This document shows positions 2,587-32,407 of a stretch of DNA of 45,355 bases, piece by piece. The number at the start of each line of letters is the position of its first letter. Position 1 is the first letter of the stretch. The stretch is taken from IMG/VR virus record IMGVR_UViG_3300010362_000033, positions 1 to 45,355 of that record, one strand, 5' to 3'. Below the pieces are notes generated by a model. The model was not told the origin of the DNA. It did no database searches and saw only the letters and a program-made list of their open reading frames with translations. Source of the DNA: a virus. Lineage: Duplodnaviria; Caudoviricetes. Made by a program: the position numbers and the translations under genes.

Positions 2587-2709
2587 AGCAGGTTCCCTTC
2601 TGCGTTGCGCTGTGTGCTCATGACAGCAGCTCGATGAAGCAGGTCGTCAACACCGCGAGCCACGGTGCTGTCAGGCGTCCCCTAAGGCGACCTGCAGATG
2701 CGACGTGAT

Positions 2710-3222
2710 TTACGTCGGTGTCGCGTAGGTCATCGTGAAAAACAGCTGCACGGTGCCGCCGGTCGGAATGTCACCGACCCCGATAACCGCCGGCACTTGC
2801 CCCGAGCCGGACCCGTTGACGTACATGGATGTGCCCGACGCTTGCACCATGACCGTCATGTGCGTGTAGTTCGCTTTCGTGATGCCACGCCAGATCGCGC
2901 CGCCCCCGGCGACGTCGTTCGTCGACAGTGCCGGAAACGGCAAGCCGGTGATCCGCAAGCCGCCCGACGCGGTCGTGTGCGTGAAGGTCGATGTCAGAAT
3001 GTTGCCGTGACAGACGACGAGCTTCGAGAACTTTGCATACAGCCCGAAGCGTGTCGTATACGCGACGTTCAAATTGCCAGCGGTGTCGAACGTGAGTGAC
3101 GGCGTCCAATTGCCGTAGTCGCCGCCGTACAGATAGTTGAGGTTATCGCGTAGGTGCGTGTTGAGCATCGTTGCGGTGACGAGTTCCCCAGCGACCCACG
3201 TGCGCGGCGTCGTCCATGCCAT
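2710..3222 (-). CDS. Minor tail/tail-fibre protein
   Basis: N-terminal MAWTTPRTWVAGELVTATMLNTHLRDNLNYL motif typical of siphovirus minor tail proteins; beta-rich C-terminus with ITGLPF. Confidence 0.7.
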   Translation of the reverse strand: MAWTTPRTWVAGELVTATMLNTHLRDNLNYLYGGDYGNWTPSLTFDTAGNLNVAYTTRFGLYAKFSKLVVCHGNILTSTFTHTTASGGLRITGLPFPALSTNDVAGGGAIWRGITKANYTHMTVMVQASGTSMYVNGSGSGQVPAVIGVGDIPTGGTVQLFFTMTYATPT

Positions 3223-3223
3223 G

Positions 3224-3607
3224 TCACACCCCTACGTGATGCGCGACGTTCTCGCGCTGCAGCATCTCGACCGATTCACTCGGCCACCATGACTGGTTTT
3301 CTCGTTTCTGTCGTGCGAGCAGCAGCCGCTCAATCTCGTCGGCGTCGACCGGAAACTGCACCGCGTGATACTGCGCGCCGCACTCGATGCAGCACGCGAG
3401 CGCCCAGCCACGACGCACGAAGAGACCGGCGCCGCACTCGCAATCGACAATCCAGCGCCCATGATCGACACGCGCGACGCGCACGCTGTCGGAGATGTGG
3501 ACCTGCGCGACCTGCTTCGCTGCGAGCGCGCGCACTTGCCAGTCGCACAGCTCGACCGGCGAGCGCACACCGAGCGCCGTCGCATCAAGCAGTCGTGTGA
3601 ACATCAC
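3224..3607 (-). CDS. Cys-rich tail-region protein (putative Zn-binding)
   Basis: VDHGRWIVDCECG...CCIECG...ENQSWWPSE; coupled to both neighbours. Confidence 0.6.
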   Translation of the reverse strand: MMFTRLLDATALGVRSPVELCDWQVRALAAKQVAQVHISDSVRVARVDHGRWIVDCECGAGLFVRRGWALACCIECGAQYHAVQFPVDADEIERLLLARQKRENQSWWPSESVEMLQRENVAHHVGV

Positions 3608-4781
3608 TGCCCCGTCGAAGTTCGATGGACTGCGGCTCGTCGTAGGAATACACGAGCACTTGCCGCGCTGATGCCATGACGCGCGCTTCGAGTGTCGGCA
3701 CTTCGTCGAAGCGTCGCTGCGACACGAGAATGGTGTCGACGAGATCGCCGCCCCAGTCAGACAGCTCGCGCACGACGACCGGCGCCGCGCGATGCTTCGA
3801 GCCGTCGCGCTCGATGCCGGACACCGGCACGTGATACCGCGACGCCACGCGCGCCAGTAACAGCCCGTTGCCGCAGCCTAAGTCGAGCACCGCGCCTTGT
3901 GGCGGCGACGCGTCGAGCGCGCGCAGGATCTGCGCGTGCGCGCTGTGCATGGCGTCACGTGTGCTGAAACCGTTCTCAATCCACTGCCAGTCGCGCGCCG
4001 GCGCCGCTGCATCGACACTCGCGCGAAATGGCGCGAGACTCGTCAGCGGCACGAAGTTCGGTTTCAGGAAGGGAAACGTCAGACCGCTCGGGGCGTCGAC
4101 GGGGTATTGCGTGCCCATCAGCCGCACGTCACGTCGCTTCGCGGTGTAGTCGGTATTCGTGACGACCTTGACGACTGGCCAGATGACTTCCGCGATGCCG
4201 TGGAGCGCGCTGTATTGCACTGGCCACGACAGCAGCTCGCGGGTCCACTCGGCGCAGCTGTCCGGTAAGAGCGTTGCGTACTGCTGCGCGGCATACTCCG
4301 ATGCGACGCAGCCAAACGCGCACGGCAGATGCGGCACGAGCCGCACGCCGAGCCAGCGCCCGAGAATATTCGAGCCGAGCGGCGTCGCGCTGCGATGCAC
4401 CATTGCGAGCGTCGTGTCGCGCAGGCGTCGTTCATTCCAGACGCGGTCGAAAAACTGAATGCAGCATTCAGGAAAGCCGAGCAGCCGCCCGATGTGCGCA
4501 TCGTCGCGCGCGTGAAAGGCGTTCGCGAGATCAAGCCCGACCGCCGGTGTGCGCGTGATAGCGACGCGCGTCTTCGTGACGACGGTCATGCACAGCTGCA
4601 GCGTCTCGACCCGTTCGGCGAGCTGGGGTCTGTCGAAGACGAGCGCCGCGAGCCGCAGGTCAGCGGCGACGCTCGTCAGCTCGACGTCGAGCCATGCGGC
4701 TTGAATCGCATCGACGCGCGGCGCCCAGATCGCTTCGGCACGATCTGACGCCCATGCAATGCGTGTGAACTCAGCCGGCAT
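3585..4781 (-). CDS. DUF483-like Cys domain fused to class I SAM methyltransferase
   Basis: IGRLLGFPECCIQFF and LVPHLPCAFGC motifs; C-terminal VLDLGCGNG SAM-binding motif I. Confidence 0.75.
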   Translation of the reverse strand: MPAEFTRIAWASDRAEAIWAPRVDAIQAAWLDVELTSVAADLRLAALVFDRPQLAERVETLQLCMTVVTKTRVAITRTPAVGLDLANAFHARDDAHIGRLLGFPECCIQFFDRVWNERRLRDTTLAMVHRSATPLGSNILGRWLGVRLVPHLPCAFGCVASEYAAQQYATLLPDSCAEWTRELLSWPVQYSALHGIAEVIWPVVKVVTNTDYTAKRRDVRLMGTQYPVDAPSGLTFPFLKPNFVPLTSLAPFRASVDAAAPARDWQWIENGFSTRDAMHSAHAQILRALDASPPQGAVLDLGCGNGLLLARVASRYHVPVSGIERDGSKHRAAPVVVRELSDWGGDLVDTILVSQRRFDEVPTLEARVMASARQVLVYSYDEPQSIELRRGSDVHTTA

Positions 4782-6006
4782 CGTTGTGATCTCCGTGCAT
4801 GTGCGTCATCCCCTGATCCCCGTGCACGATGTACGCGCCGTCGCTGTGCTGAAAGCCGTCCGGTGCGTCCCAGTGATCCCCGTGCGGCTGCTCGTGCGGC
4901 GCGCTGTCGCGTAAGACGCGCTGTTCGAGTGCGTGCCGGCGCGCCGCGACGAGCGTCAGCGGCGTCTGCCCCAGCTTCACGAGTTCGTCTTCAAGCGTCT
5001 CGAAGAGTCGGTACCAGACGCGGCACTGCTCGCTGCGATTGCGCCAGTCGCCGTCGATGGCGGTACCGGGACACTGCCCCTTGCAGGCATAGAAGAAGCG
5101 ACAGCCCTGACAGCCCCCATCAGCCCACGGGGTTTCGTAGAGCGCGCGATAGCGCTCGACGCCGTGACTGCCGGCTTTGACCCAGTCGACGCCGTCTTTA
5201 TTCGTGCGACCGCAGTTCGCGCGGTTCCCGAGCCCGTTGACGCTGCGCACGGCTGGCGTCGTCAACGGGTCGCAGGCATTCCAGACACACGACCCCGGTG
5301 CGCCCGTCAGCAGCAGCTGCGCGAGATCGGTGAAGACATCGAAGCGCAGTACCTTGAGCTGCTGCTGCAGCTGATAGCACGCGAGAAAGGCGTTGACCTG
5401 CTCGTCGTCGCTGAGCGCCAGCTGCTGCCGTACCTCGTCGTGATCGACTTCGAGCGCATGCAGCCGCACGTGTGCGATACGATTCGCATCGAGTTCGCGC
5501 AGCCACACGAGCAAGCGCGGCAAGCGCTCGGCTGATGCGTTGCCCCGATGGAGCGTCACGATCAGCGACGGCACGTTCTGCGCATCGAGCAGCAGCGCGA
5601 TAGCGCGCATCGTCGCTGCCGTGGCTTCGCGCGTCTTGTCGAGTGTGCCAGCCCAGCGTGCATCGTTGAGTTCATCGGGTCCGTCGACCGAGATACCGAC
5701 GCTCGTGCGACAGCGCGCGAATAGCTCGACATGCGCCGGCGTGATGAGCGCGCCATTCGTTTGCACGCTGGTCGAGCCGTAGCGCGCGAAGCCCCACTGC
5801 AGAATGTCGACGAGATCGTCGAACTTCATCAGCAACGGTTCGCCGCCAAAGAGCGTGAAGGCGCCGCCTTCGCGCATCAGTCCCCGTTTCATCGCGTCAA
5901 GGTCATAGCCAGCGGAGTAATTGCCGGCATCGCGCAAGGGATGCTCGTAGCAGTACGGACACGCCAGCTGACACGCCACGCCGACCGGTGAGAGTTCAAT
6001 CGTCAA
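4771..6006 (-). CDS. Radical SAM/SPASM-domain enzyme
   Basis: CQLACPYC (CxxxCxxC), FGGEPLL, QTNG and ISVDGP; SPASM cysteines CQGCRFFYACKGQCPG...C. The TTG start overlaps the upstream TGA (TTGA). Confidence 0.93.
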   Translation of the reverse strand: MTIELSPVGVACQLACPYCYEHPLRDAGNYSAGYDLDAMKRGLMREGGAFTLFGGEPLLMKFDDLVDILQWGFARYGSTSVQTNGALITPAHVELFARCRTSVGISVDGPDELNDARWAGTLDKTREATAATMRAIALLLDAQNVPSLIVTLHRGNASAERLPRLLVWLRELDANRIAHVRLHALEVDHDEVRQQLALSDDEQVNAFLACYQLQQQLKVLRFDVFTDLAQLLLTGAPGSCVWNACDPLTTPAVRSVNGLGNRANCGRTNKDGVDWVKAGSHGVERYRALYETPWADGGCQGCRFFYACKGQCPGTAIDGDWRNRSEQCRVWYRLFETLEDELVKLGQTPLTLVAARRHALEQRVLRDSAPHEQPHGDHWDAPDGFQHSDGAYIVHGDQGMTHMHGDHNDAG

Positions 6007-6698
6007 TTTGCGTCTCCGTGCGGCGAGTCGCCGTGTTCCGCTGCCGCGACGTCATGGTGCGCGGTGTCGGTGTGTGCGGTGTTCTGCGCCGCCTGATCCC
6101 CGTGCGTGTTGTTGTCGGTGTGCGCGACGTCGGCGTGCGCACTGTCCACGTGTGCGCTGTCACCGTGTGTGTCGACGTGCGCCACGTCGCCGTGTGCCGT
6201 GCTCGTCGTGTCCGCGAAGTCTTCGTGCGTATTGTCGCCGTGCGCGACATTCACGAAGGCGACATTGATAAACGGCGTGTTATTCGAATAGCTGCCGCCG
6301 TCGAAGTGCTCATAGCCGTCGGTATGGTTGGGTACGTCGATGTGCGACGCGCCGTCGGTATGGTTGTAACTGGCGCCGAAGTCGCCATGCGCTTGATCCC
6401 CGTGTGACGTGTCGCCGTGCGCGGTGTCGGTGTGCGTGCGACCGCCCCCGGTGTCGTTGTGACCGCCCATCGAATCGTTGTGATCGTCGTGCCGCGAGCT
6501 ATCGACGTGCGCGGTGTCGGTGTGCGCCGTGTCACTGTGCGCCACGTCGCTATGTGCGGTATCGCCGTGTGCGGTGTCGGTGTGCGCGATGTCGCCGTGT
6601 GACGCGTCGAGATGCAGCGCGTCGCCGTGCGGCACGTCCCCGTGCGCGACGTCGTCGTGCGAGACCGGCGCGCTGTCCTGATGCGCGATGTCAATGTG
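6003..6698 (-). repeat. His-x-Asp coding repeat (~37 copies, mostly 5-residue spacing)
   Basis: HGDVAHVDTHGDSAHVDSAHADVAHTD... counted by eye in the translation. Confidence 0.95.
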
Positions 6699-9275
6699 CC
6701 CGATGATGAGCCCGAAGCCGAGTCGCGTCGTCAGGTCGAGTTCGCTGAAGCCTTGAATTTCGAGCAGCCAGTACGCCGTGCTGTCTGAGATGGCGAGCGC
6801 GTACTCGACGCTCAGCACGTTGTCGACGAGCTGATAGCGCTTGCCTTGAATGTAGTACCCACGGGGAATGGTGCCGCTCGTGTCGATGCCGGTCACGACT
6901 TCCTGAATGCCGATGCGGTCACCGATCTCGCGCAGTACGAGCTGCTGCTTGAGCGTGTCGGTCGACGCGACGAACGCCATACGGTCGATACTCGCGAAGG
7001 CTGCCGTCTGCGTCTGCAGGACATACAGCGCGATCTCCGCGCCGACGTCCAGCCGCGATTGATACGGCATGTCGACGCCGACCGTCACGACGCCGATGTT
7101 CGCTTGTGCAGTCTCGTCGTCTTCTTCGAGAATCACATTCTCGAAGTCGTAGAGACCCCGTCCCCGCACTTGAAACACGCCAGCCGTGCCGCCGATCCAG
7201 CCTTCGACCGTGCCGGTATTCGTCACTTCGAGCCGCGCGCCGTTGCCGCCGAAGTTCGCGACAATCGTGCAGAACGCTGTCAGGTCGGCGCCGCTGCCGT
7301 CTTGCGCCCCATTCATCACGTAGTCGGTCGTTGCGACCGGCGTGACCATGTCGGTACCGCCGACGCGCGCCGCAATCTGCTGCGGGTCACGATACGGACT
7401 GAGCCACGTAAACGTCTGCCCCGGTACGAGCTTCGTCGCACTCTGCAGCGACGCGAGTACCGTCGTCGCGACGGTGTCGGCGCGCTTCGGGTGTACGGTG
7501 ACCTGTACGTCATTCAGCGAGCGGTCACGCTGATAGGTCAGGTCGAGTGCAGTCAGGTCGACGAACGTCGCGAGATTGACGCGGTTCTGTGCACGTCGGC
7601 TGCGCCCTTCAAAGGTCAGCGTGCCGTCGCCCTTTGGGTAGACGAAGCCGTGCTCGCTGGCGGCGAGCTTCGCGGCTTCTTCCATTGCCGTCTGAGACTC
7701 GTCACGTGCGCTGTCGAGTGAGTACGCCATCTGGTCGACGCCCTGATCGACTTCGAGCGCGCGCGGCTGGCGTGGCAAGCTGTTGACGACGGTCGTAAAG
7801 ACGTCGCCGGGGTACTGATTGATCTGCACCGGCAGGCCATGCAGCTTCGCTTGCGCGAGTTCATCCATGTAATCGACAGCGGTGACGAACGTGCGCCGCG
7901 AGCCGTACTGTCCGGCGACCGGTTTGATGATGTCGACGCGACCGGTGAAGAGCGTTTTTGTCGTGACGTCGAAGCTGGCGCGCCAGCGCACGCCGATACC
8001 GATACTGAAACCGGCGCGACAGTTCGTGTGTCCGGGGCTGTAGTAGCCGAGCAGGTGTGCGGAGTTCTGCGCCGAGTTATTGAGCGCGAACGTCATTTCG
8101 CCGGTCGCCGCAATGCGCTCGGTGACGTTGCCGCTGGTCATGCCGCCTGATGCGGTGATGCCTTCATAGCGCAGCACGTCGCCGGTGACATCGGTCCAGC
8201 CGTTGTCACGTCCGCTCAGTTCCATCTCGACGACAAAGCGCAACGTGCGGTCCGTGGCGGCGCCGACCATCGTGCCGACGCTGCCGGTCGACGACACGCC
8301 GGTCAGCGCGGCGACAGGTACGGTGTACGTGATTTCGAGCTTCGGCGGATTCGCGCTCCCGGCCATCGCGACCTGAATGCGCGAGAAGCTGCCAGAGACC
8401 CACGCCGGCGCCACGTTCGCAACGTCGAAGTTCGCGTTGCGTATGCCGAACTTGCTGACGCCGGTTTTGCTGACGTTGCCGATGCCCGTCGCATTGAAGG
8501 TAAAGGCGTTGTACGCACTCGCGGTCATGCTCGCGAAGGTGCGCGGCGACCCCGTCTGCGACGTCGATCCAACCTGACTGTAGTCAGTCGCCGCGAGCGC
8601 GGTGTTACTCGCTGGCGTGGCGGTATAGATGTCGGCGTTTGGCGACGCGACGAGATTGTCGGTGATGATGTTCACGTACAGCGACAGCTGCGCCGCTGAG
8701 ATGTTCGCCGCGCTCGTGAGTGCCGACGTATCGAACAAGAACAGACCGCGAACGTTCGCTTGCCATTGATTCGTGGTACTGCTGGCGTTGATGAAGATCA
8801 GGTCGCTTGCCGTCGCGCTGTCGTTGGCTGAATTACCGGCGCCGGCGCGAATCGTCGACCATGTTTCGTTGACACCGAAGCGCCCGACTTGCCCGTCGAC
8901 CGTCGTCGTCTCCGGGTCCGCATCGGGGTACGCCGTCAGCGTCGCGAAGCCGAGATCGAGCGCCGGCACCAACGGCTGCGCAATCAGCAGATCCCACGCG
9001 TGACACGTCCACCAGACCCACTTGAACGCGTGGTACATGCGCTGCGCAAAGACCCAGTGCGAGCGCACGTCGAGCGTGAACGAGTGATCGGCGTGCTCGA
9101 CGATGTAGGCATGCGGCAGCACGCGCACGATGCGCGCGCGATAGCCGACGTCACACGGACGAATCCGCAGAACCCAGCGCAGCCAGCGCCCGACGAGCGG
9201 TGTGTCGAGCGCCCCGACGAGCAGCCACTGCCAGCGCGCGAAGAATGCCGGCCCAAAGGCGCGCCACGGTTCCAT
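6003..9275 (-). CDS. Tail tip/baseplate hub protein with a carbohydrate-binding-like domain and C-terminal His-x-Asp repeat
   Basis: Immediately after tape measure (TGATG overlap). Contains an RGLFLFDTSAL...AQLSLY...PKLEITY domain, a WTDVTGDV hub start, IGDRIGI, and then the HxD repeats. Confidence 0.8.
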   Translation of the reverse strand: MEPWRAFGPAFFARWQWLLVGALDTPLVGRWLRWVLRIRPCDVGYRARIVRVLPHAYIVEHADHSFTLDVRSHWVFAQRMYHAFKWVWWTCHAWDLLIAQPLVPALDLGFATLTAYPDADPETTTVDGQVGRFGVNETWSTIRAGAGNSANDSATASDLIFINASSTTNQWQANVRGLFLFDTSALTSAANISAAQLSLYVNIITDNLVASPNADIYTATPASNTALAATDYSQVGSTSQTGSPRTFASMTASAYNAFTFNATGIGNVSKTGVSKFGIRNANFDVANVAPAWVSGSFSRIQVAMAGSANPPKLEITYTVPVAALTGVSSTGSVGTMVGAATDRTLRFVVEMELSGRDNGWTDVTGDVLRYEGITASGGMTSGNVTERIAATGEMTFALNNSAQNSAHLLGYYSPGHTNCRAGFSIGIGVRWRASFDVTTKTLFTGRVDIIKPVAGQYGSRRTFVTAVDYMDELAQAKLHGLPVQINQYPGDVFTTVVNSLPRQPRALEVDQGVDQMAYSLDSARDESQTAMEEAAKLAASEHGFVYPKGDGTLTFEGRSRRAQNRVNLATFVDLTALDLTYQRDRSLNDVQVTVHPKRADTVATTVLASLQSATKLVPGQTFTWLSPYRDPQQIAARVGGTDMVTPVATTDYVMNGAQDGSGADLTAFCTIVANFGGNGARLEVTNTGTVEGWIGGTAGVFQVRGRGLYDFENVILEEDDETAQANIGVVTVGVDMPYQSRLDVGAEIALYVLQTQTAAFASIDRMAFVASTDTLKQQLVLREIGDRIGIQEVVTGIDTSGTIPRGYYIQGKRYQLVDNVLSVEYALAISDSTAYWLLEIQGFSELDLTTRLGFGLIIGHIDIAHQDSAPVSHDDVAHGDVPHGDALHLDASHGDIAHTDTAHGDTAHSDVAHSDTAHTDTAHVDSSRHDDHNDSMGGHNDTGGGRTHTDTAHGDTSHGDQAHGDFGASYNHTDGASHIDVPNHTDGYEHFDGGSYSNNTPFINVAFVNVAHGDNTHEDFADTTSTAHGDVAHVDTHGDSAHVDSAHADVAHTDNNTHGDQAAQNTAHTDTAHHDVAAAEHGDSPHGDAN

Positions 9276-14211: not shown

Positions 14212-15300
14212 TTAAGCGGCCTGTACTTTCACGAGCTGTTGCAGATCGCCCAGCACGGTTTTCGCGCGTGCGACCCACGTAGCCTCGGCTATGCAAGCCG
14301 GTAATGCGGCAGCGACACGTGCACGACCGGCTTTGTCAGCCAGCCAGAGACGGATCAGCGCTGCCGCCTCGGTCGGTGTCGTGAAGGTCGGCACCAGATC
14401 GCCGAAGACTTCGCCGACTTCCGCACGGTACTCGCTCAGATGAAATGCCCCGCACGCCGCGAGTTCATACGCACGGGGACTGAGTGATTCGGCGTAGAGT
14501 GGCGCCTGCGCTTTGTAGCCCCAGTTCTTGCGCGAGCGGTACAGATTCAGCCCGATGCGCGCACGCCGATAGAGCGCGCCGGCGGTTTCGTTGTTGATCT
14601 GCTCGTCGCGAACCAGACTGCGCACCTGCTTGTTGAGACCCAGCCCTTTCCATGTGCCATAGAGACCGAGATCGATGCCGCTCCAATCAATCGAGTTAAA
14701 CCATTCGACGCGCTCGGAGAACCCGGAGCCGACGAAGACGACGTCGTGTGTCGGCACCTGTCCATCGATCAAGTGCGCCGAGACGTAGTGACGTTCCGGG
14801 TGATAAGCGTGCGGCAGATACCCCGCGCGCGGATTCACGGCTTTGAACGCGGCGACGCAGCTGCGCTCGTTCGTCCAGCAGCCGTCGACGCGCGCCGCCA
14901 TCGCGAGTTCTTGCTCGCTGTCGTACGGGGATTCTGTGAAGAGCACCGTCACCGTCAGGCCAGCACGCTTCATCATGATCACGACATCGGGATGCATCAG
15001 CATCGCGCTCACAATCAGCACGACGTCGACCTGATGCCGCAGCGCCATTTCAAGCGCGCCGATTCCAGCTTGATACATGATGTCAGCGGTATTCGGCTTC
15101 GCGAGATCGGGCTGCGCTTTCTTCTTCTTTCTCCACATCACGTGCAGCGTCTTGCCGGCGAACTCGATGCGCTGGTCGAGACGAAACGGCACGATCTCGA
15201 CCCCGAGCACGTGCAAGCCGTAGCGCAGACCGGCTTCGACGTCAGCCGTCGACCATGTCGCGCCGGGATGCACGAGCAGCACGCGCAGCGGTCGTGTCAC
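14212..15300 (-). CDS. Glycosyltransferase, CgeB/GT-B-like
   Basis: YLPHAYHPERH, DVVFVGS, LYRRARIGLNLYR and SPRAYELAACGAFHLS motifs. Confidence 0.85.
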   Translation of the reverse strand: MTRPLRVLLVHPGATWSTADVEAGLRYGLHVLGVEIVPFRLDQRIEFAGKTLHVMWRKKKKAQPDLAKPNTADIMYQAGIGALEMALRHQVDVVLIVSAMLMHPDVVIMMKRAGLTVTVLFTESPYDSEQELAMAARVDGCWTNERSCVAAFKAVNPRAGYLPHAYHPERHYVSAHLIDGQVPTHDVVFVGSGFSERVEWFNSIDWSGIDLGLYGTWKGLGLNKQVRSLVRDEQINNETAGALYRRARIGLNLYRSRKNWGYKAQAPLYAESLSPRAYELAACGAFHLSEYRAEVGEVFGDLVPTFTTPTEAAALIRLWLADKAGRARVAAALPACIAEATWVARAKTVLGDLQQLVKVQAA

Positions 15301-16508
15301 CGCGACAGCTCCGGTGTCGGGTCAGGATCGGGGTCCGGTTCGGGATCAGGGTCTGGCGTCGGGGTTTCACGCAACATGGATGCCTCTGCTTTCTTGATGC
15401 CGAAAACCAGCTTCATTCCCGGCGGATCGGTGTTCGGGGTCTCGACGCGCGCGAAGCACTGCCCGTGCCGCTGTTCAAATTCATCCCATGCGCGCTTGAC
15501 GCCGGGATACATCACGTTGTCGTAGTCGTCGCCGGCGACGATGCCGCCGACGCGTACGTGTGGCCACCATGCGTCGAGATCGGCGGCTGTCGACTCGTAG
15601 GAGTGGTCTGCGTCGACGTACAAAAAGTCGATGGGTCCGTCCGTCCATGCGGCAGCGGCTGCGGTCGTGAGCGCTGGCACCAGTCGCACCGACGGCGCGA
15701 CGTGCGCGGCGACGAGATTCGTCGCGCACTCGAAGAGCATCTGCGGCGCCCCGGTGACGGTGCCGCCGTACGCGACGGCGCCCATCCACGTATCGACGCA
15801 GGTCAGCACGCCGCCCCACTGCCGCAGCTCGTGCGCGAAGGCAATCGCCGACGCACCGCGCCACGTGCCCAGCTCGACGCAGCGATGCGGTCGATGCGCA
15901 TGCAGCAGGTCGAGCAGCTGCGGACCGTGATGCAGCCAGCCTTGCGGCAGATGCTGCAGAACTGGCGGCGCCGCCGGCCTGAGATGCGCAATGACATCGG
16001 CGCACCAGACGATCTCGGATGGCGCCCAGCGCATCGACGCGAGAAAGTCGAAGTCGCCTTCGTACCGTGTGCCCCAGCGCCCGAGCTTCGTCTTGTCGTT
16101 CGGGATCAGCATCATTTGCGAGCTGACGTTGCCGACGCGCAGTGCTGGTTCCGACCACAAGACGCGGTCATTCCAGACCATGCGAAACAAGATCGGCTTG
16201 TCGCGGACTGTCGCGCGTGCGTCTTCCATCAGCTGCCGCGCTCCCGGCAGATAGATGTCGTCGTCGTCCATGAACGCGAGATGCTGCCCACGCGCGCGCG
16301 CGATGCCGGCGGTCCGCTCGGCGGCGCCCCAGTTATGACCCCGCGCGCACTCGACGAACGTGCAGCCAGCGACAGCGGCGACCGCTGCCGCCGACGGAGA
16401 CTCACCGACGACCAGCACTTCGTCGTCATCGCCGCGCTGCTGTGTGATCGACTGCAGCGCGCGATACAGCGTCGGTCGACCAATCGTCGGGACGATGAAG
16501 CTAATCAT
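15297..16508 (-). CDS. GT2 glycosyltransferase fused to class I SAM methyltransferase
   Basis: ISFIVPTIGR...FMDDDD (GT-A DxD); then VELGTWRGAS, CVDTW, IDFLYVDADHSY, GGIVAGDDY; C-terminal (PD/PE) repeat. Confidence 0.88.
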   Translation of the reverse strand: MISFIVPTIGRPTLYRALQSITQQRGDDDEVLVVGESPSAAAVAAVAGCTFVECARGHNWGAAERTAGIARARGQHLAFMDDDDIYLPGARQLMEDARATVRDKPILFRMVWNDRVLWSEPALRVGNVSSQMMLIPNDKTKLGRWGTRYEGDFDFLASMRWAPSEIVWCADVIAHLRPAAPPVLQHLPQGWLHHGPQLLDLLHAHRPHRCVELGTWRGASAIAFAHELRQWGGVLTCVDTWMGAVAYGGTVTGAPQMLFECATNLVAAHVAPSVRLVPALTTAAAAAWTDGPIDFLYVDADHSYESTAADLDAWWPHVRVGGIVAGDDYDNVMYPGVKRAWDEFEQRHGQCFARVETPNTDPPGMKLVFGIKKAEASMLRETPTPDPDPEPDPDPDPTPELSR

Positions 16509-19726: not shown

Positions 19727-20302
19727 TCACCGCAAGCTGCGCAGTGTGTGCAGCCGACGCAGCCAGACGAGCCGCGACCCCTTGTGCTGGGAATACGCCG
19801 CGTTCAGCGAGCGCTTTGCGACGTCGACATTCGTCGCTTCGTAGGCGGGAAACGTGACGACGCTGATTTCGCGTACGTCCATATCCCAGATCGTACGCAG
19901 TGGCGGGTCTTCTTCGAAGTTCCACTCGTCGTCGAGCGCGCGAAAGCCGAACGACATGCCCGACACGTCGCCGCGCTCGATGGAGCGCAGAATGTCAGCG
20001 ACGTAACTAATCTGCGGGTCCGGCTCGATGCGTGCGCGCAGCCCTTGCGTCTGCTTGCGGAGCGTGAGCGTGCCGGCTCGCGTGCGCGCAAGAATCTTCG
20101 CGGTGTCATGGTCGACGAGCGCGCGCACATCGGCGTCACTTTTGAGCGTGCGGTCGACGGCTTCGGGCGCAATGATCTCGACGAAGCCGCCCAGATCGAC
20201 CGACCGACTATTAAAGACAATCGGCAGCGCATCGAGATACCGCCCCTTCTCGTCGATGGCGACGCGGCTGTCGAGCAGCGCGCGATATTCGAGATCAGCC
20301 AT
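19727..20302 (-). CDS. Prohead protease, HK97 family
   Basis: FNSRSVDLGGFVEII, DVRALVDHD, GDVSGMSFGF, EISVVTFPAY. Confidence 0.95.
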   Translation of the reverse strand: MADLEYRALLDSRVAIDEKGRYLDALPIVFNSRSVDLGGFVEIIAPEAVDRTLKSDADVRALVDHDTAKILARTRAGTLTLRKQTQGLRARIEPDPQISYVADILRSIERGDVSGMSFGFRALDDEWNFEEDPPLRTIWDMDVREISVVTFPAYEATNVDVAKRSLNAAYSQHKGSRLVWLRRLHTLRSLR

Positions 20303-30137: not shown

Positions 30138-30437
30138 TTAGCCCGTTCCCCTTAAAATTTTGCCGGCACTGTTGCGCACTTCGCGCGTGCTCCATCGTGT
30201 GCCGCAGACCACACATTCACGCCGGCGGTAGACGCCTTCTTCGATGATGAGACTACGCGAGCGGATCACGCGGCTGATCTGACTGCCGCAGTCGGGGTTT
30301 GGACACGTGAACTTTGACGGCGTGTCGCGATAGCGCACGAGCGCGCCGCCACAGTGCGCGCAGTGTCCGCGCTGCTGCGCTTCGCTGCGGGTCGTCAAGA
30401 CCCGACAGCGCACACAGATCCGAAACTGATCGAGCAT
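30138..30437 (-). CDS. Zn-ribbon protein resembling the NrdR N-terminal domain
   Basis: CPNPDCG...SRVIRSR...YRRRECVVCGTRWSTRE, plus an extra CxxC...CxxC; no ATP cone. Confidence 0.7.
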   Translation of the reverse strand: MLDQFRICVRCRVLTTRSEAQQRGHCAHCGGALVRYRDTPSKFTCPNPDCGSQISRVIRSRSLIIEEGVYRRRECVVCGTRWSTREVRNSAGKILRGTG

Positions 30438-30571
30438 CAGCGCGGTAAGACCGCCAGCATCGACAGCAGCACGAGCAGCATGACCGCGACCCACAACGGC
30501 GCACGGCCAATCGCCGCGCCAATCGTGACCGCGAACGCCGCGAGCACCAGCAAGATCGTTAGTGACAGCAT
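30437..30571 (-). CDS. 44-aa two-TM membrane protein (holin-like), not in ORF track
   Basis: MLSLTILLVLAAFAVTIGAAIGRAPLWVAVMLLVLLSMLAVLPR*; SD GAAAGGGG upstream; TGATG coupling to the next gene. Confidence 0.65.
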   Translation of the reverse strand: MLSLTILLVLAAFAVTIGAAIGRAPLWVAVMLLVLLSMLAVLPR

Positions 30572-30595
30572 GAGCGGTTCCCCTTTCGTTCACGA

Positions 30596-31401
30596 CTCGA
30601 CGTCAGCACACCACACAACACAACTCGACGACACGACAAAACGCTTCACGCAACGACACAACAGTGCTCGACGCCCAGCACACCACACTGCACAGCGCTA
30701 CTCGACGACAGCACACTGCAGCACACGCCAGATCGCTACATCCCTCGACGACACGACAACTCAGAACATCCCGCAACACAACACAACTCGACGTCACTTC
30801 AATTCAGATCACGCCGGCTCGCTGGCATCACAACACAGTGCTCGACGGCACGCCACGCCACCATCACTACGCGCCACCGCACAACAATCCACACCTCGAC
30901 GGCAGCTCACGTCACCGCACCACGCATCGCGGCACTACTCGACGACACGACACAACAAACCGGTTCGGGTCACGCCACGCAACTACACTGCGGCTCACCA
31001 CTCGACGCCAGTTCACATCAGACCAGAACAGTGCACCTCTCGACGTCACTGCAAGACACCCGACCACACGACACGAGATGCCACTGCACAGCTCGACGAC
31101 AATCCAGCACACAACAAACGACCGCACACCAAAACTCGGACGACCCACGACAGCGCAGCACAGTTCTCGACGTCAGATCACGTCATCACGGTCGACGACA
31201 GTGCAGCCCACTGCAGCACTCGACGTCATCGCATCACAGCACAGCTCACTACGACTCGGCCCAGACCACGCCACTGCACCTCTCGACGACACCGCATATC
31301 ACGACAACGCACCGGCACGACACGTCAGCGCACTGCACGCCTCGACGTCACAGCACTTCACCACGACACCACGTCGCAACACGGCACGACACAGCTCGAC
31401 G
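30596..31401 (-). repeat. Non-coding array: 17 CTCGACG boundaries separating units of 5-nt [CA-NNN] modules
   Basis: CTCGACG at 30596, 30624, 30667, 30701, 30744, 30787, 30841, 30895, 30938, 31001, 31039, 31092, 31166, 31219, 31282, 31341 and 31395. All 16 periods are 5n+3 or 5n+4. Strand inferred from the operon direction. Confidence 0.92.
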
Positions 31402-31404
31402 ACG

Positions 31405-31788
31405 TCACTTCTCGCCAATGAGCGCGCGCAGCGTCGCACCGTCAGACGGCGCGACTTTGTCGGGATTCAGCCCCGGTATCATCGAGCGCAACAGCGGCGA
31501 GCGCGGTACCGGCACCGTGCGACCGTAATCTTTCAGCATGCGGTGATACGCGATCTCGATCTTCACAAGATTCTGCGGCGTCTTGATGCACTGCCCCATC
31601 TGTTCGCCCATCTTCGGCGTCAAGGTGCCGCGCTCTAGTCCGTCGAGAATCTGCTCGTTCTTTTCGAGAATCGCTTCAACGGTGCGCAGCTGCGGGGCGT
31701 TTTTTCGCAGCAGCGAGTGTGTCGTCGATCCGTTCGAATTCGTAGCTGTATCGGCCTTCTCCGTCGCTGCGTTCTCCCGCGTAGCCAT
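31405..31788 (-). CDS. Hypothetical protein between the RAMP-like gene and the array
   Basis: Helical ORF whose stop abuts the array; overlaps the upstream gene if this ATG is used. Confidence 0.6.
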   Translation of the reverse strand: MATRENAATEKADTATNSNGSTTHSLLRKNAPQLRTVEAILEKNEQILDGLERGTLTPKMGEQMGQCIKTPQNLVKIEIAYHRMLKDYGRTVPVPRSPLLRSMIPGLNPDKVAPSDGATLRALIGEK

Positions 31789-32407
31789 GCACACCCCCAT
31801 ACGTGAACACGTGATGCAGATCGGTTTCCGAGACTGATCGCCCCAGCACTTTGATCGTGAAGTCGAGCACCGATGGCGGCTCGATGTACTCGAAGCGTTT
31901 GATTGCGTTCATCATGCCGCGCGGCCCCTTGACGTGAATCGCTTTGTCGAACGCGCCGTCAGCGTGCGCGATGCGATCTCCGTTCGGTCGCATGATCGGA
32001 AGCCAGTACACGTGCTCGTCGAGATAGACGCCGTTGATGACGCGCGTACTGAAAGCGCGCTCGCCCTGAATGCGACCGACGAATTGATTCGACAGCACAC
32101 GTGCACAATCTTTGATGTGCGCTTTGACGGTCGACGCACGCTGCACGAGCGCGCCATCGTGACGTTGAAAGACCAGCATCGAATACGACTGATCGGCGTC
32201 GCCTTCGCCGCGCTCAATGCTCGCGAGCACTTCTTCGTTGATCTCGTCAATCGACAGCGCGCCGGCTGGCGCGACGCGCGGCGCTCGCGATTCGAGCCAT
32301 TTTTTGACCAGCTCGGGATCGGCGGGGACTGACGCACACAGCCGCGTCAGCAAGGTCCAGCGCACGCGATAGAGCGTCCAGAGTTGCGGCAGTTCAGGTT
32401 TTGTCAT
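31676..32407 (-). CDS. Cas7/Csm3-like RAMP-fold protein (stand-alone)
   Basis: N-terminal beta strand YRVRWTLLTRLCASVP, central ASTVKAHIKD helix, FEYIEPPSVLDFTIKV strands and C-terminal Gly loop YGGVHGYAGERSDGEGRY; SD GGGAG before the ATG. Confidence 0.65.
   Translation of the reverse strand: MTKPELPQLWTLYRVRWTLLTRLCASVPADPELVKKWLESRAPRVAPAGALSIDEINEEVLASIERGEGDADQSYSMLVFQRHDGALVQRASTVKAHIKDCARVLSNQFVGRIQGERAFSTRVINGVYLDEHVYWLPIMRPNGDRIAHADGAFDKAIHVKGPRGMMNAIKRFEYIEPPSVLDFTIKVLGRSVSETDLHHVFTYGGVHGYAGERSDGEGRYSYEFERIDDTLAAAKKRPAAAHR

Follow-up and report, generated by a model that had tools for sequence, protein, structure and literature searches.

A UG-scaffold pentanucleotide array beside a predicted RAMP gene in a phage, a probable guide array of divergent VIPR type

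Results

An array on the minus strand of a phage and its RAMP gene probably form a VIPR-like system

A 45,355-nt stretch of the Caudoviricetes virus record IMGVR_UViG_3300010362_000033, here called the window, was analyzed. It harbors a minus-strand array of about 800 bases next to a gene for a predicted RAMP protein. As judged from sequence, structural modelling and analogy, array and RAMP locus very probably work like a VIPR system, with the array encoding short guide RNAs of a divergent VIPR type. The layout of the locus, the grammar of the repeats, the linkage of gene and array and the matches of guides to genes of other phages were observed directly.

30596..31402, minus strand: guide array of 16 parsed N-N-x-Y-G units, with the 8-nt NCGNCGAG linker at both ends
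31395..31402, minus strand: first linker of the array, an example of the 8-nt repeat

On the minus strand, the array reads as runs of N-N-x-Y-G pentamers set between 8-nt linkers, and it takes up the space between two genes of that strand. The CTCGACG boundaries are found at 30596, 30624, 30667, 30701, 30744, 30787, 30841, 30895 and 30938 in the first half and at 31001, 31039, 31092, 31166, 31219, 31282, 31341 and 31395 in the second. An earlier note had listed 16 boundary-to-boundary periods, which were reproduced exactly (ten 5n+3, six 5n+4); a 5n+3 period equals the 8-nt linker plus k pentamers, and a 5n+4 period has one extra base. At the degenerate boundary that the note placed at 31135, the 74-nt period splits into 43 + 31. 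Its further remarks held as well: CA is sometimes CG (18 of 133 pentamers), the base beside CA is biased to G or C (111/133, minus strand), and the unit listing contains no identical pair.

Autocorrelation, the check proposed in that note, gave a count of 80 for CA at lag 5; 2000 mononucleotide shuffles averaged 11.5 and never exceeded 23. No part of the window is more strongly 5-nt-periodic than the array. The peak at 4100-4400, second-highest in 5-nt autocorrelation and outside the array, proved on inspection to be ordinary coding sequence. A 15-nt-period repeat at 6501-6662, within a 1090-aa ORF (6003-9275), is probably a coding pentapeptide repeat.

Per-phase entropies on the minus strand (133 pentamers) were 1.93, 1.98, 1.53, 0.63 and 0.31 bits, where the last two look more constrained than they are, as the parser retains phase-consistent units only. 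Phase is kept while content diversifies, as had been proposed. The 'NNN' variable triplet of the note applies to two fully variable bases, whereas the third is semi-constrained, and its plus-strand example gave the grammar correctly, although the strand carrying the information is the minus strand. The array folds less stably than 20 of 20 shuffles (z +1.76). The array had no Rfam match; no sigma-70 promoter was found, and terminators were not in excess.

The neighbouring genes encode a predicted RAMP protein and a predicted helical protein

31676..32407, minus strand: Vipr-like RAMP gene, 243 aa, predicted Cas7/Csm3-type fold (AF2 model, structure matches)
31405..31800, minus strand: accessory (vap-like) gene, 127-131 aa, predicted all-helical; overlaps the end of the RAMP gene, its stop abutting the first linker

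The 243-aa protein was modelled with AlphaFold (AF2) at a pLDDT of 82. When the model was compared with known structures by VIA-align, the top 16 matches were all CRISPR RAMP complexes, with Z values of 10.9-8.7 in a tool whose own note calls middling Z values common. The predicted features include a helical insertion, a thumb hairpin and a C-terminal glycine-rich loop, in which G208 is invariant and R213 and G218 are near-invariant. The uniform family of matches and this loop support the prediction of a RAMP fold. Searches returned 463 close homologs and 582 clusters at 50% identity. Neither this protein nor the accessory protein had a match in Pfam or PHROGs; sequence searches of the PDB with the RAMP protein gave nothing relevant, a GTDB scan gave no homolog, and the ESM Atlas gave nothing but unnamed viral clusters for the RAMP protein and sub-threshold matches for the accessory protein. 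Among named phages the single match, a weak one (25% identity), was in Microcystis phage Mae-JY09, near the end of the record. PADLOC gave only a weak Csm4 match for 5 of 65 RAMP homologs (E 0.019).

The accessory protein, whose model has a pLDDT of 80, was considered as a Cas11-like small subunit and had no Foldseek match in the PDB at E ≤ 0.001. By tblastn, homologs of its gene were detected at 53 of 129 loci, mostly the closer ones. In most close homologs the TGA stop of this gene overlaps the first linker. The minus strand of the window also carries terminase, portal, capsid and RecT genes, and a Pfam scan of 26 window ORFs revealed no cas genes. At 3585-6006 and 14212-16508 the structural genes are interspersed with genes of radical SAM, methyltransferase-like and glycosyltransferase type.

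The array is linked to the RAMP gene across a family of loci

In 70 of 76 distinct RAMP-homolog loci with at least 700 nt of downstream sequence, a same-strand UG-periodic array follows the gene, compared with 2 of 1000 background stretches. In the converse search by linker motif, 23 of the 30 viral loci recovered contained a RAMP homolog. L256, L265 and L272 may carry orphan arrays: their UG arrays are delimited by linkers, but no RAMP homolog could be detected in the DNA fetched around them, nor, for L256, anywhere in the record.

The phase entropies of the family (2616 pentamers) were 1.99, 2.00, 1.73, 0.74 and 0.11 bits, with G preferred in phase 3 (53%), T in phase 4 (85%) and G in phase 5 (99%). 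Units are again separated by an 8-nt linker with the consensus NCGNCGAG. The 519 unique unit bodies from 84 loci comprise 384 of length 5k, 72 of 5k+1 and 63 of other lengths. Guides span 4-10 steps in 530 of 549 parsed units and 11 steps in 15 more. Of the 57 parsed arrays, 39 have no more than two pentamers before the first linker and 30 no more than two after the last. One-base bulges, positioned mid-guide, are commoner in longer guides (9/115 at six steps, 14/31 at ten). Reverse-complement guide pairs were searched for and none was found. At L065:4631-7960 a UG array of more than 3 kb has a variant linker ending in CAAG.

Decoded guides match genes of other phages

30849..30894, minus strand: guide of 9 steps plus one extra base; 18/18 antisense match to a large serine recombinase gene of phage L446
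30795..30840, minus strand: guide of 9 steps plus one extra base; 17/18 antisense match to P27-type terminase small-subunit genes
30632..30666, minus strand: guide of 7 steps; near-identical guides in two other phages, L016 and L100

Guides were decoded by the VIPR reading rule, in which two bases (phases 1-2, NN) are read and one target base is skipped. Those of at least 8 steps (n = 235) were searched against fetched phage DNA with arrays masked, while units that were neither 5k nor 5k+1 (63 of 519) were left undecoded. With the cut-off for a 'strong' match fixed after early search rounds, a skip of one gave 14 strong matches and its shuffled control none. For the same guides, skips of 0 and 2 gave 1 and 2 matches, each against 0 shuffled; with 361 guides, a skip of 3 gave 2 against 0, and the alternative register on phases 2-3 gave 10 against 6. 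Skips of 0, 2 and 3 and the phase 2-3 register were rejected as at or only marginally above shuffles.

The searched DNA was small and was enlarged partly with homologs of genes already matched; in the final 5.5 Mb, skip 1 gave 18/235 strong matches compared with 1/235 shuffled. Skips 0 and 2, for which this search included no shuffles, gave 1 and 3 matches. The last DNA batch brought five new skip-1 matches; at most three alternative parses were allowed in the final search, and an earlier match (L266:10128) was not recovered. Identified target genes encode major capsid protein, terminase small subunit, ParB-like methylase, prohead protease and serine recombinase, and some capsid and terminase motifs are matched by more than one independent guide.

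For the window itself, 2 of 9 long guides had a strong match. The target site of 30849..30894 is the catalytic-serine strand of the L446 recombinase (PF00239 + PF07508). The targets of 30795..30840 lie in three other phages (L130, L410 and L430; the L130 gene is PF05119), and a guide from L038 matches the same terminase small-subunit gene region. The best of 150 shuffles reached 16/18 for each of the two matched guides. The best target match of the 7-step guide 30632..30666 was 13/14, which is inside the shuffle range. Both matched window guides and 8 of the 14 strong matches of the first set are 5k+1 units; because such guides still match, the extra base would be a bulge that leaves the target register unshifted.

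No window guide matched the window above 16/20 or 10/12, and no PAM-like flanking motif was seen in 14 matches. The RAMP gene was found in 0 of 20 and 0 of 28 phages in two sets fetched by terminase or capsid, many of which are fragments, and two targeted capsid genes sit in RAMP-carrying phages (G001, G012). By sequence, the targets appear to be competing mobile elements and not self. Relatives of one targeted capsid are present in Acidobacteriota MAGs, from which an Acidobacteriota host group may be deduced.

The view in the earlier note that the array is unlike a CRISPR repeat-spacer array did not survive: in its probable function the array does resemble a repeat-spacer array of guides. Nor did substitutions concentrate at NNN as the note expected. 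Seven pairs of homologous guides, 55 pentamers in all, differed 4, 6, 9, 11 and 2 times at phases 1 to 5; choosing the pairs on phases 1-3 lowers the counts at those phases. NN is kept between related guides, as selection on the target would predict.

In a contrast set of 24 guides from GGY arrays in the fetched DNA, 1 strong match was obtained with real and 1 with shuffled guides, and the strands were split 12 to 12. One GGY/NN guide, at L207:5315, matches the prohead protease gene of the window (19727-20302, minus strand) at 20/22 in the sense frame, and L207 itself is matched by UG-type guides; this suggests mutual targeting of the window phage and L207, at a rate of 1 match versus 1 control among the 24 guides. 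L170, a phage matched 20/20 by one UG-type guide, has at 2694-4400 what resembles a canonical VIPR locus, as labelled by context: a gene with a G-loop, one further gene and a GGY/NN array.

Targets are mostly antisense

Antisense matches with the skip at codon position 3 made up 16 of 18 strong matches compared with 79 of 217 weak best matches, as called by a simple codon model trained partly on target genes. In 549 guides, NN frequencies correlate with those of codon positions 1-2 read antisense (rho 0.79, p 3e-4) but not read sense (rho -0.24). Antisense guides outnumbered sense guides 105:39 in the closest homologs, and in homologs below 45% identity the bias was gone (17:29).

The third base carries target information

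Matches were selected on NN alone, and the third base of each pentamer, x, was then compared with the skipped target base under a null model conditioned on both neighbouring NN. x was identical to the skipped base in 72.4 of 153 steps, where the null gave 52.6, and 0 of 10,000 simulations reached this value. In five held-out later matches, identity was 21/38 against 14.4 expected (p 0.012; p 0.08 when G-U was counted). For phase 4, no such link with the skipped base was obvious. We read x as G by default with partial complementarity, arising perhaps from loose pairing or from the making of guides; from the sequences, either x would be partly read, or guides would be copied from targets triplet by triplet.

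In the former case the code may be contiguous: only UG would be scaffold, N-N-x would pair with an unbroken target, G-U pairs being tolerated, and the guide would act as an antisense silencer of mRNA. We consider this unlikely, even though much of the x data fits it. Beyond the identity counts, x agreement (identity or G-U) is 0.63 in register and drops to 0.40-0.46 when shifted by one or two steps, contiguous matches reach 29/30 bases for one guide and 23/24 for another, x composition follows the antisense codon context family-wide (rho 0.52, p 2e-5; sense 0.31), and the targets are antisense and mid-gene. However, the base opposite x = G does not match in about 41 of 99 steps, a perfect NN match has 0/7 x matches, a three-base search with 6-7-step guides gave no clear excess over control (5 vs 2 and 13 vs 20), and the held-out agreement is weaker once G-U is included. 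Wobble bases are moreover noisy in both directions, as the matched phages are relatives of the true targets. As to mRNA, type III RAMPs bind RNA. Asp30 of the RAMP protein stands at a position that we take to be like that of the Csm3 catalytic acid, yet it is kept in only 44 of 107 deep homologs. The antisense bias would also be explained by a strand-specific roadblock on DNA. On the side of RNA binding, SUSP1 Vipr is described as able to pair with ssRNA (10.64898/2026.04.26.720927).

The same concordance would be expected if x never paired and were a relic of acquisition, with target triplets copied, UG inserted and x then drifting to a G preferred by the protein. This reading, which we consider rather unlikely, is also in line with the G default (53%) at the position equivalent to G1 of GGY and with near-identical guides, in which x differs where NN is unchanged. 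The locus yielded no candidate polymerase or integrase, which speaks against this reading, as does an asymmetry at x in the first 14 matches (G opposite T, U opposite G) that resembles pairing, although the five later matches did not show it again. Two long plus-strand ORFs (30354-31421 and 30664-31638) cross the array, and protein coding might be considered, or a decayed microsatellite; we give either next to no credence. Unit lengths are not multiples of three, the neighbouring genes are on the minus strand, and the opposite strand is stop-poor in 12 of 12 homolog arrays checked, which a CA-rich composition would explain. That decoded units match genes of other phages already refutes both, in agreement with the earlier note.

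Discussion

Relation to VIPR and class 1 CRISPR-Cas

VIPR has been described with a GGY/NN pentanucleotide consensus in which NN is read and one target nucleotide, at the wobble position, is skipped, and NNNNG-type repeats and staggered arrays are also admitted (Yoon et al., bioRxiv 10.64898/2026.04.26.720920); structures are the subject of a companion preprint (10.64898/2026.04.26.720927). The present locus shares with VIPR a phage-encoded stand-alone RAMP protein (predicted, with thumb and G-loop), a single accessory gene and 5-nt repeats, together forming a minimal viral locus of vipr-like gene, accessory gene and intergenic array. By computation, targets here are likewise specified by NN with the wobble base skipped, and other phages are targeted with no flanking motif seen. 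The serine recombinase active site is a target in both, being that of SUSP1 vrRNA4 in VIPR (10.64898/2026.10.15.759431).

Several features differ. The scaffold is xYG here and GGY in VIPR, targets are mostly antisense whereas VIPR targets both strands, and the skipped-base position carries target information. Compared with SUSP1-like type II VIPR, guides are mostly 5-10 steps long instead of 9-16 repeats, and units are separated by 8-nt linkers with no structured 3' tail. The RAMP protein aligns to Vipr-like proteins beside GGY arrays, themselves labelled by context, only at the G-loop (hhalign, 14% and 0.5%). As the locus lacks several features of characterised type II VIPR, it is best filed as a variant.

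Noncanonical cores (GAC/NN, CAC/NN, WGT/NN, TGH/NN) beside Vipr-like folds are reported in a later preprint, where the third position is treated as fixed and runs comprise about 10 repeats (10.64898/2026.10.21.760802). CAC is the reverse complement of the GTG consensus found here, so the UG-scaffold clade may be among the arrays catalogued there, and the 'related consensus' of the VIPR authors (NNNNG, later CAC/NN) fits the array. Its passages on these cores, Fig. S10 aside, report no targets, strand bias or linkers. In the passages of the VIPR literature covered here, whose figures and data files may differ, we found no targets for a UG-type motif, antisense bias, 8-nt linkers or informative third base, and no account of guide acquisition.

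VIPR is the proposed ancestor of class 1 CRISPR effectors. With the Cas7, Csm3, Cmr4 and Csf2 backbones of these systems the RAMP protein shares the predicted fold, and in both a short repeat separates guides. The 8-nt length of the linker is that of the repeat-derived 5' tag of type I and III crRNAs. In contrast to class 1 systems, the array has a 5-nt period with an internal scaffold, no long direct repeats or contiguous spacers, and no multi-gene cas operon among the 26 window ORFs scanned in Pfam.

Proposed mechanism and implications

If the locus works as the SUSP1 VIPR does, the array would be transcribed together with the RAMP and accessory genes, and the transcript would be cleaved at the 8-nt linkers. 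One RAMP protomer would bind each pentamer, spanning five guide bases per three target bases, with YG sequestered and NN pairing with two bases of every target triplet; the third base of the triplet would be the wobble position. x, which is G by default and otherwise tends to complement that base, would be loosely paired or a trace of copying. The coding strand would be the main partner of the guides, at motifs conserved in capsid, protease, terminase, methylase and recombinase genes. Coated by the predicted RAMP protein, the guides may silence genes of competing phages at the positions that determine amino acids. A roadblock to transcription on DNA seems the likely outcome, with binding of mRNA as the main alternative.

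Natural guide-target pairs, two of them from the window, are now available for a divergent clade, and they give access to two questions: whether a VIPR code can do without the skip, and whether targets serve as templates for guides. A 243-aa effector with units of 38-63 nt would be a very compact programmable binder. It is conceivable, though in our view improbable, that the code of this VIPR lineage has moved towards CRISPR, with a UG scaffold, three bases pairing with an unbroken antisense target and possibly mRNA as the target. Were this true, a lineage whose array is cut at 8-nt repeats would be a living intermediate between skip-coded VIPR and the contiguous crRNAs of class 1 systems, and its retained third base would be a record of guide copying from targets.
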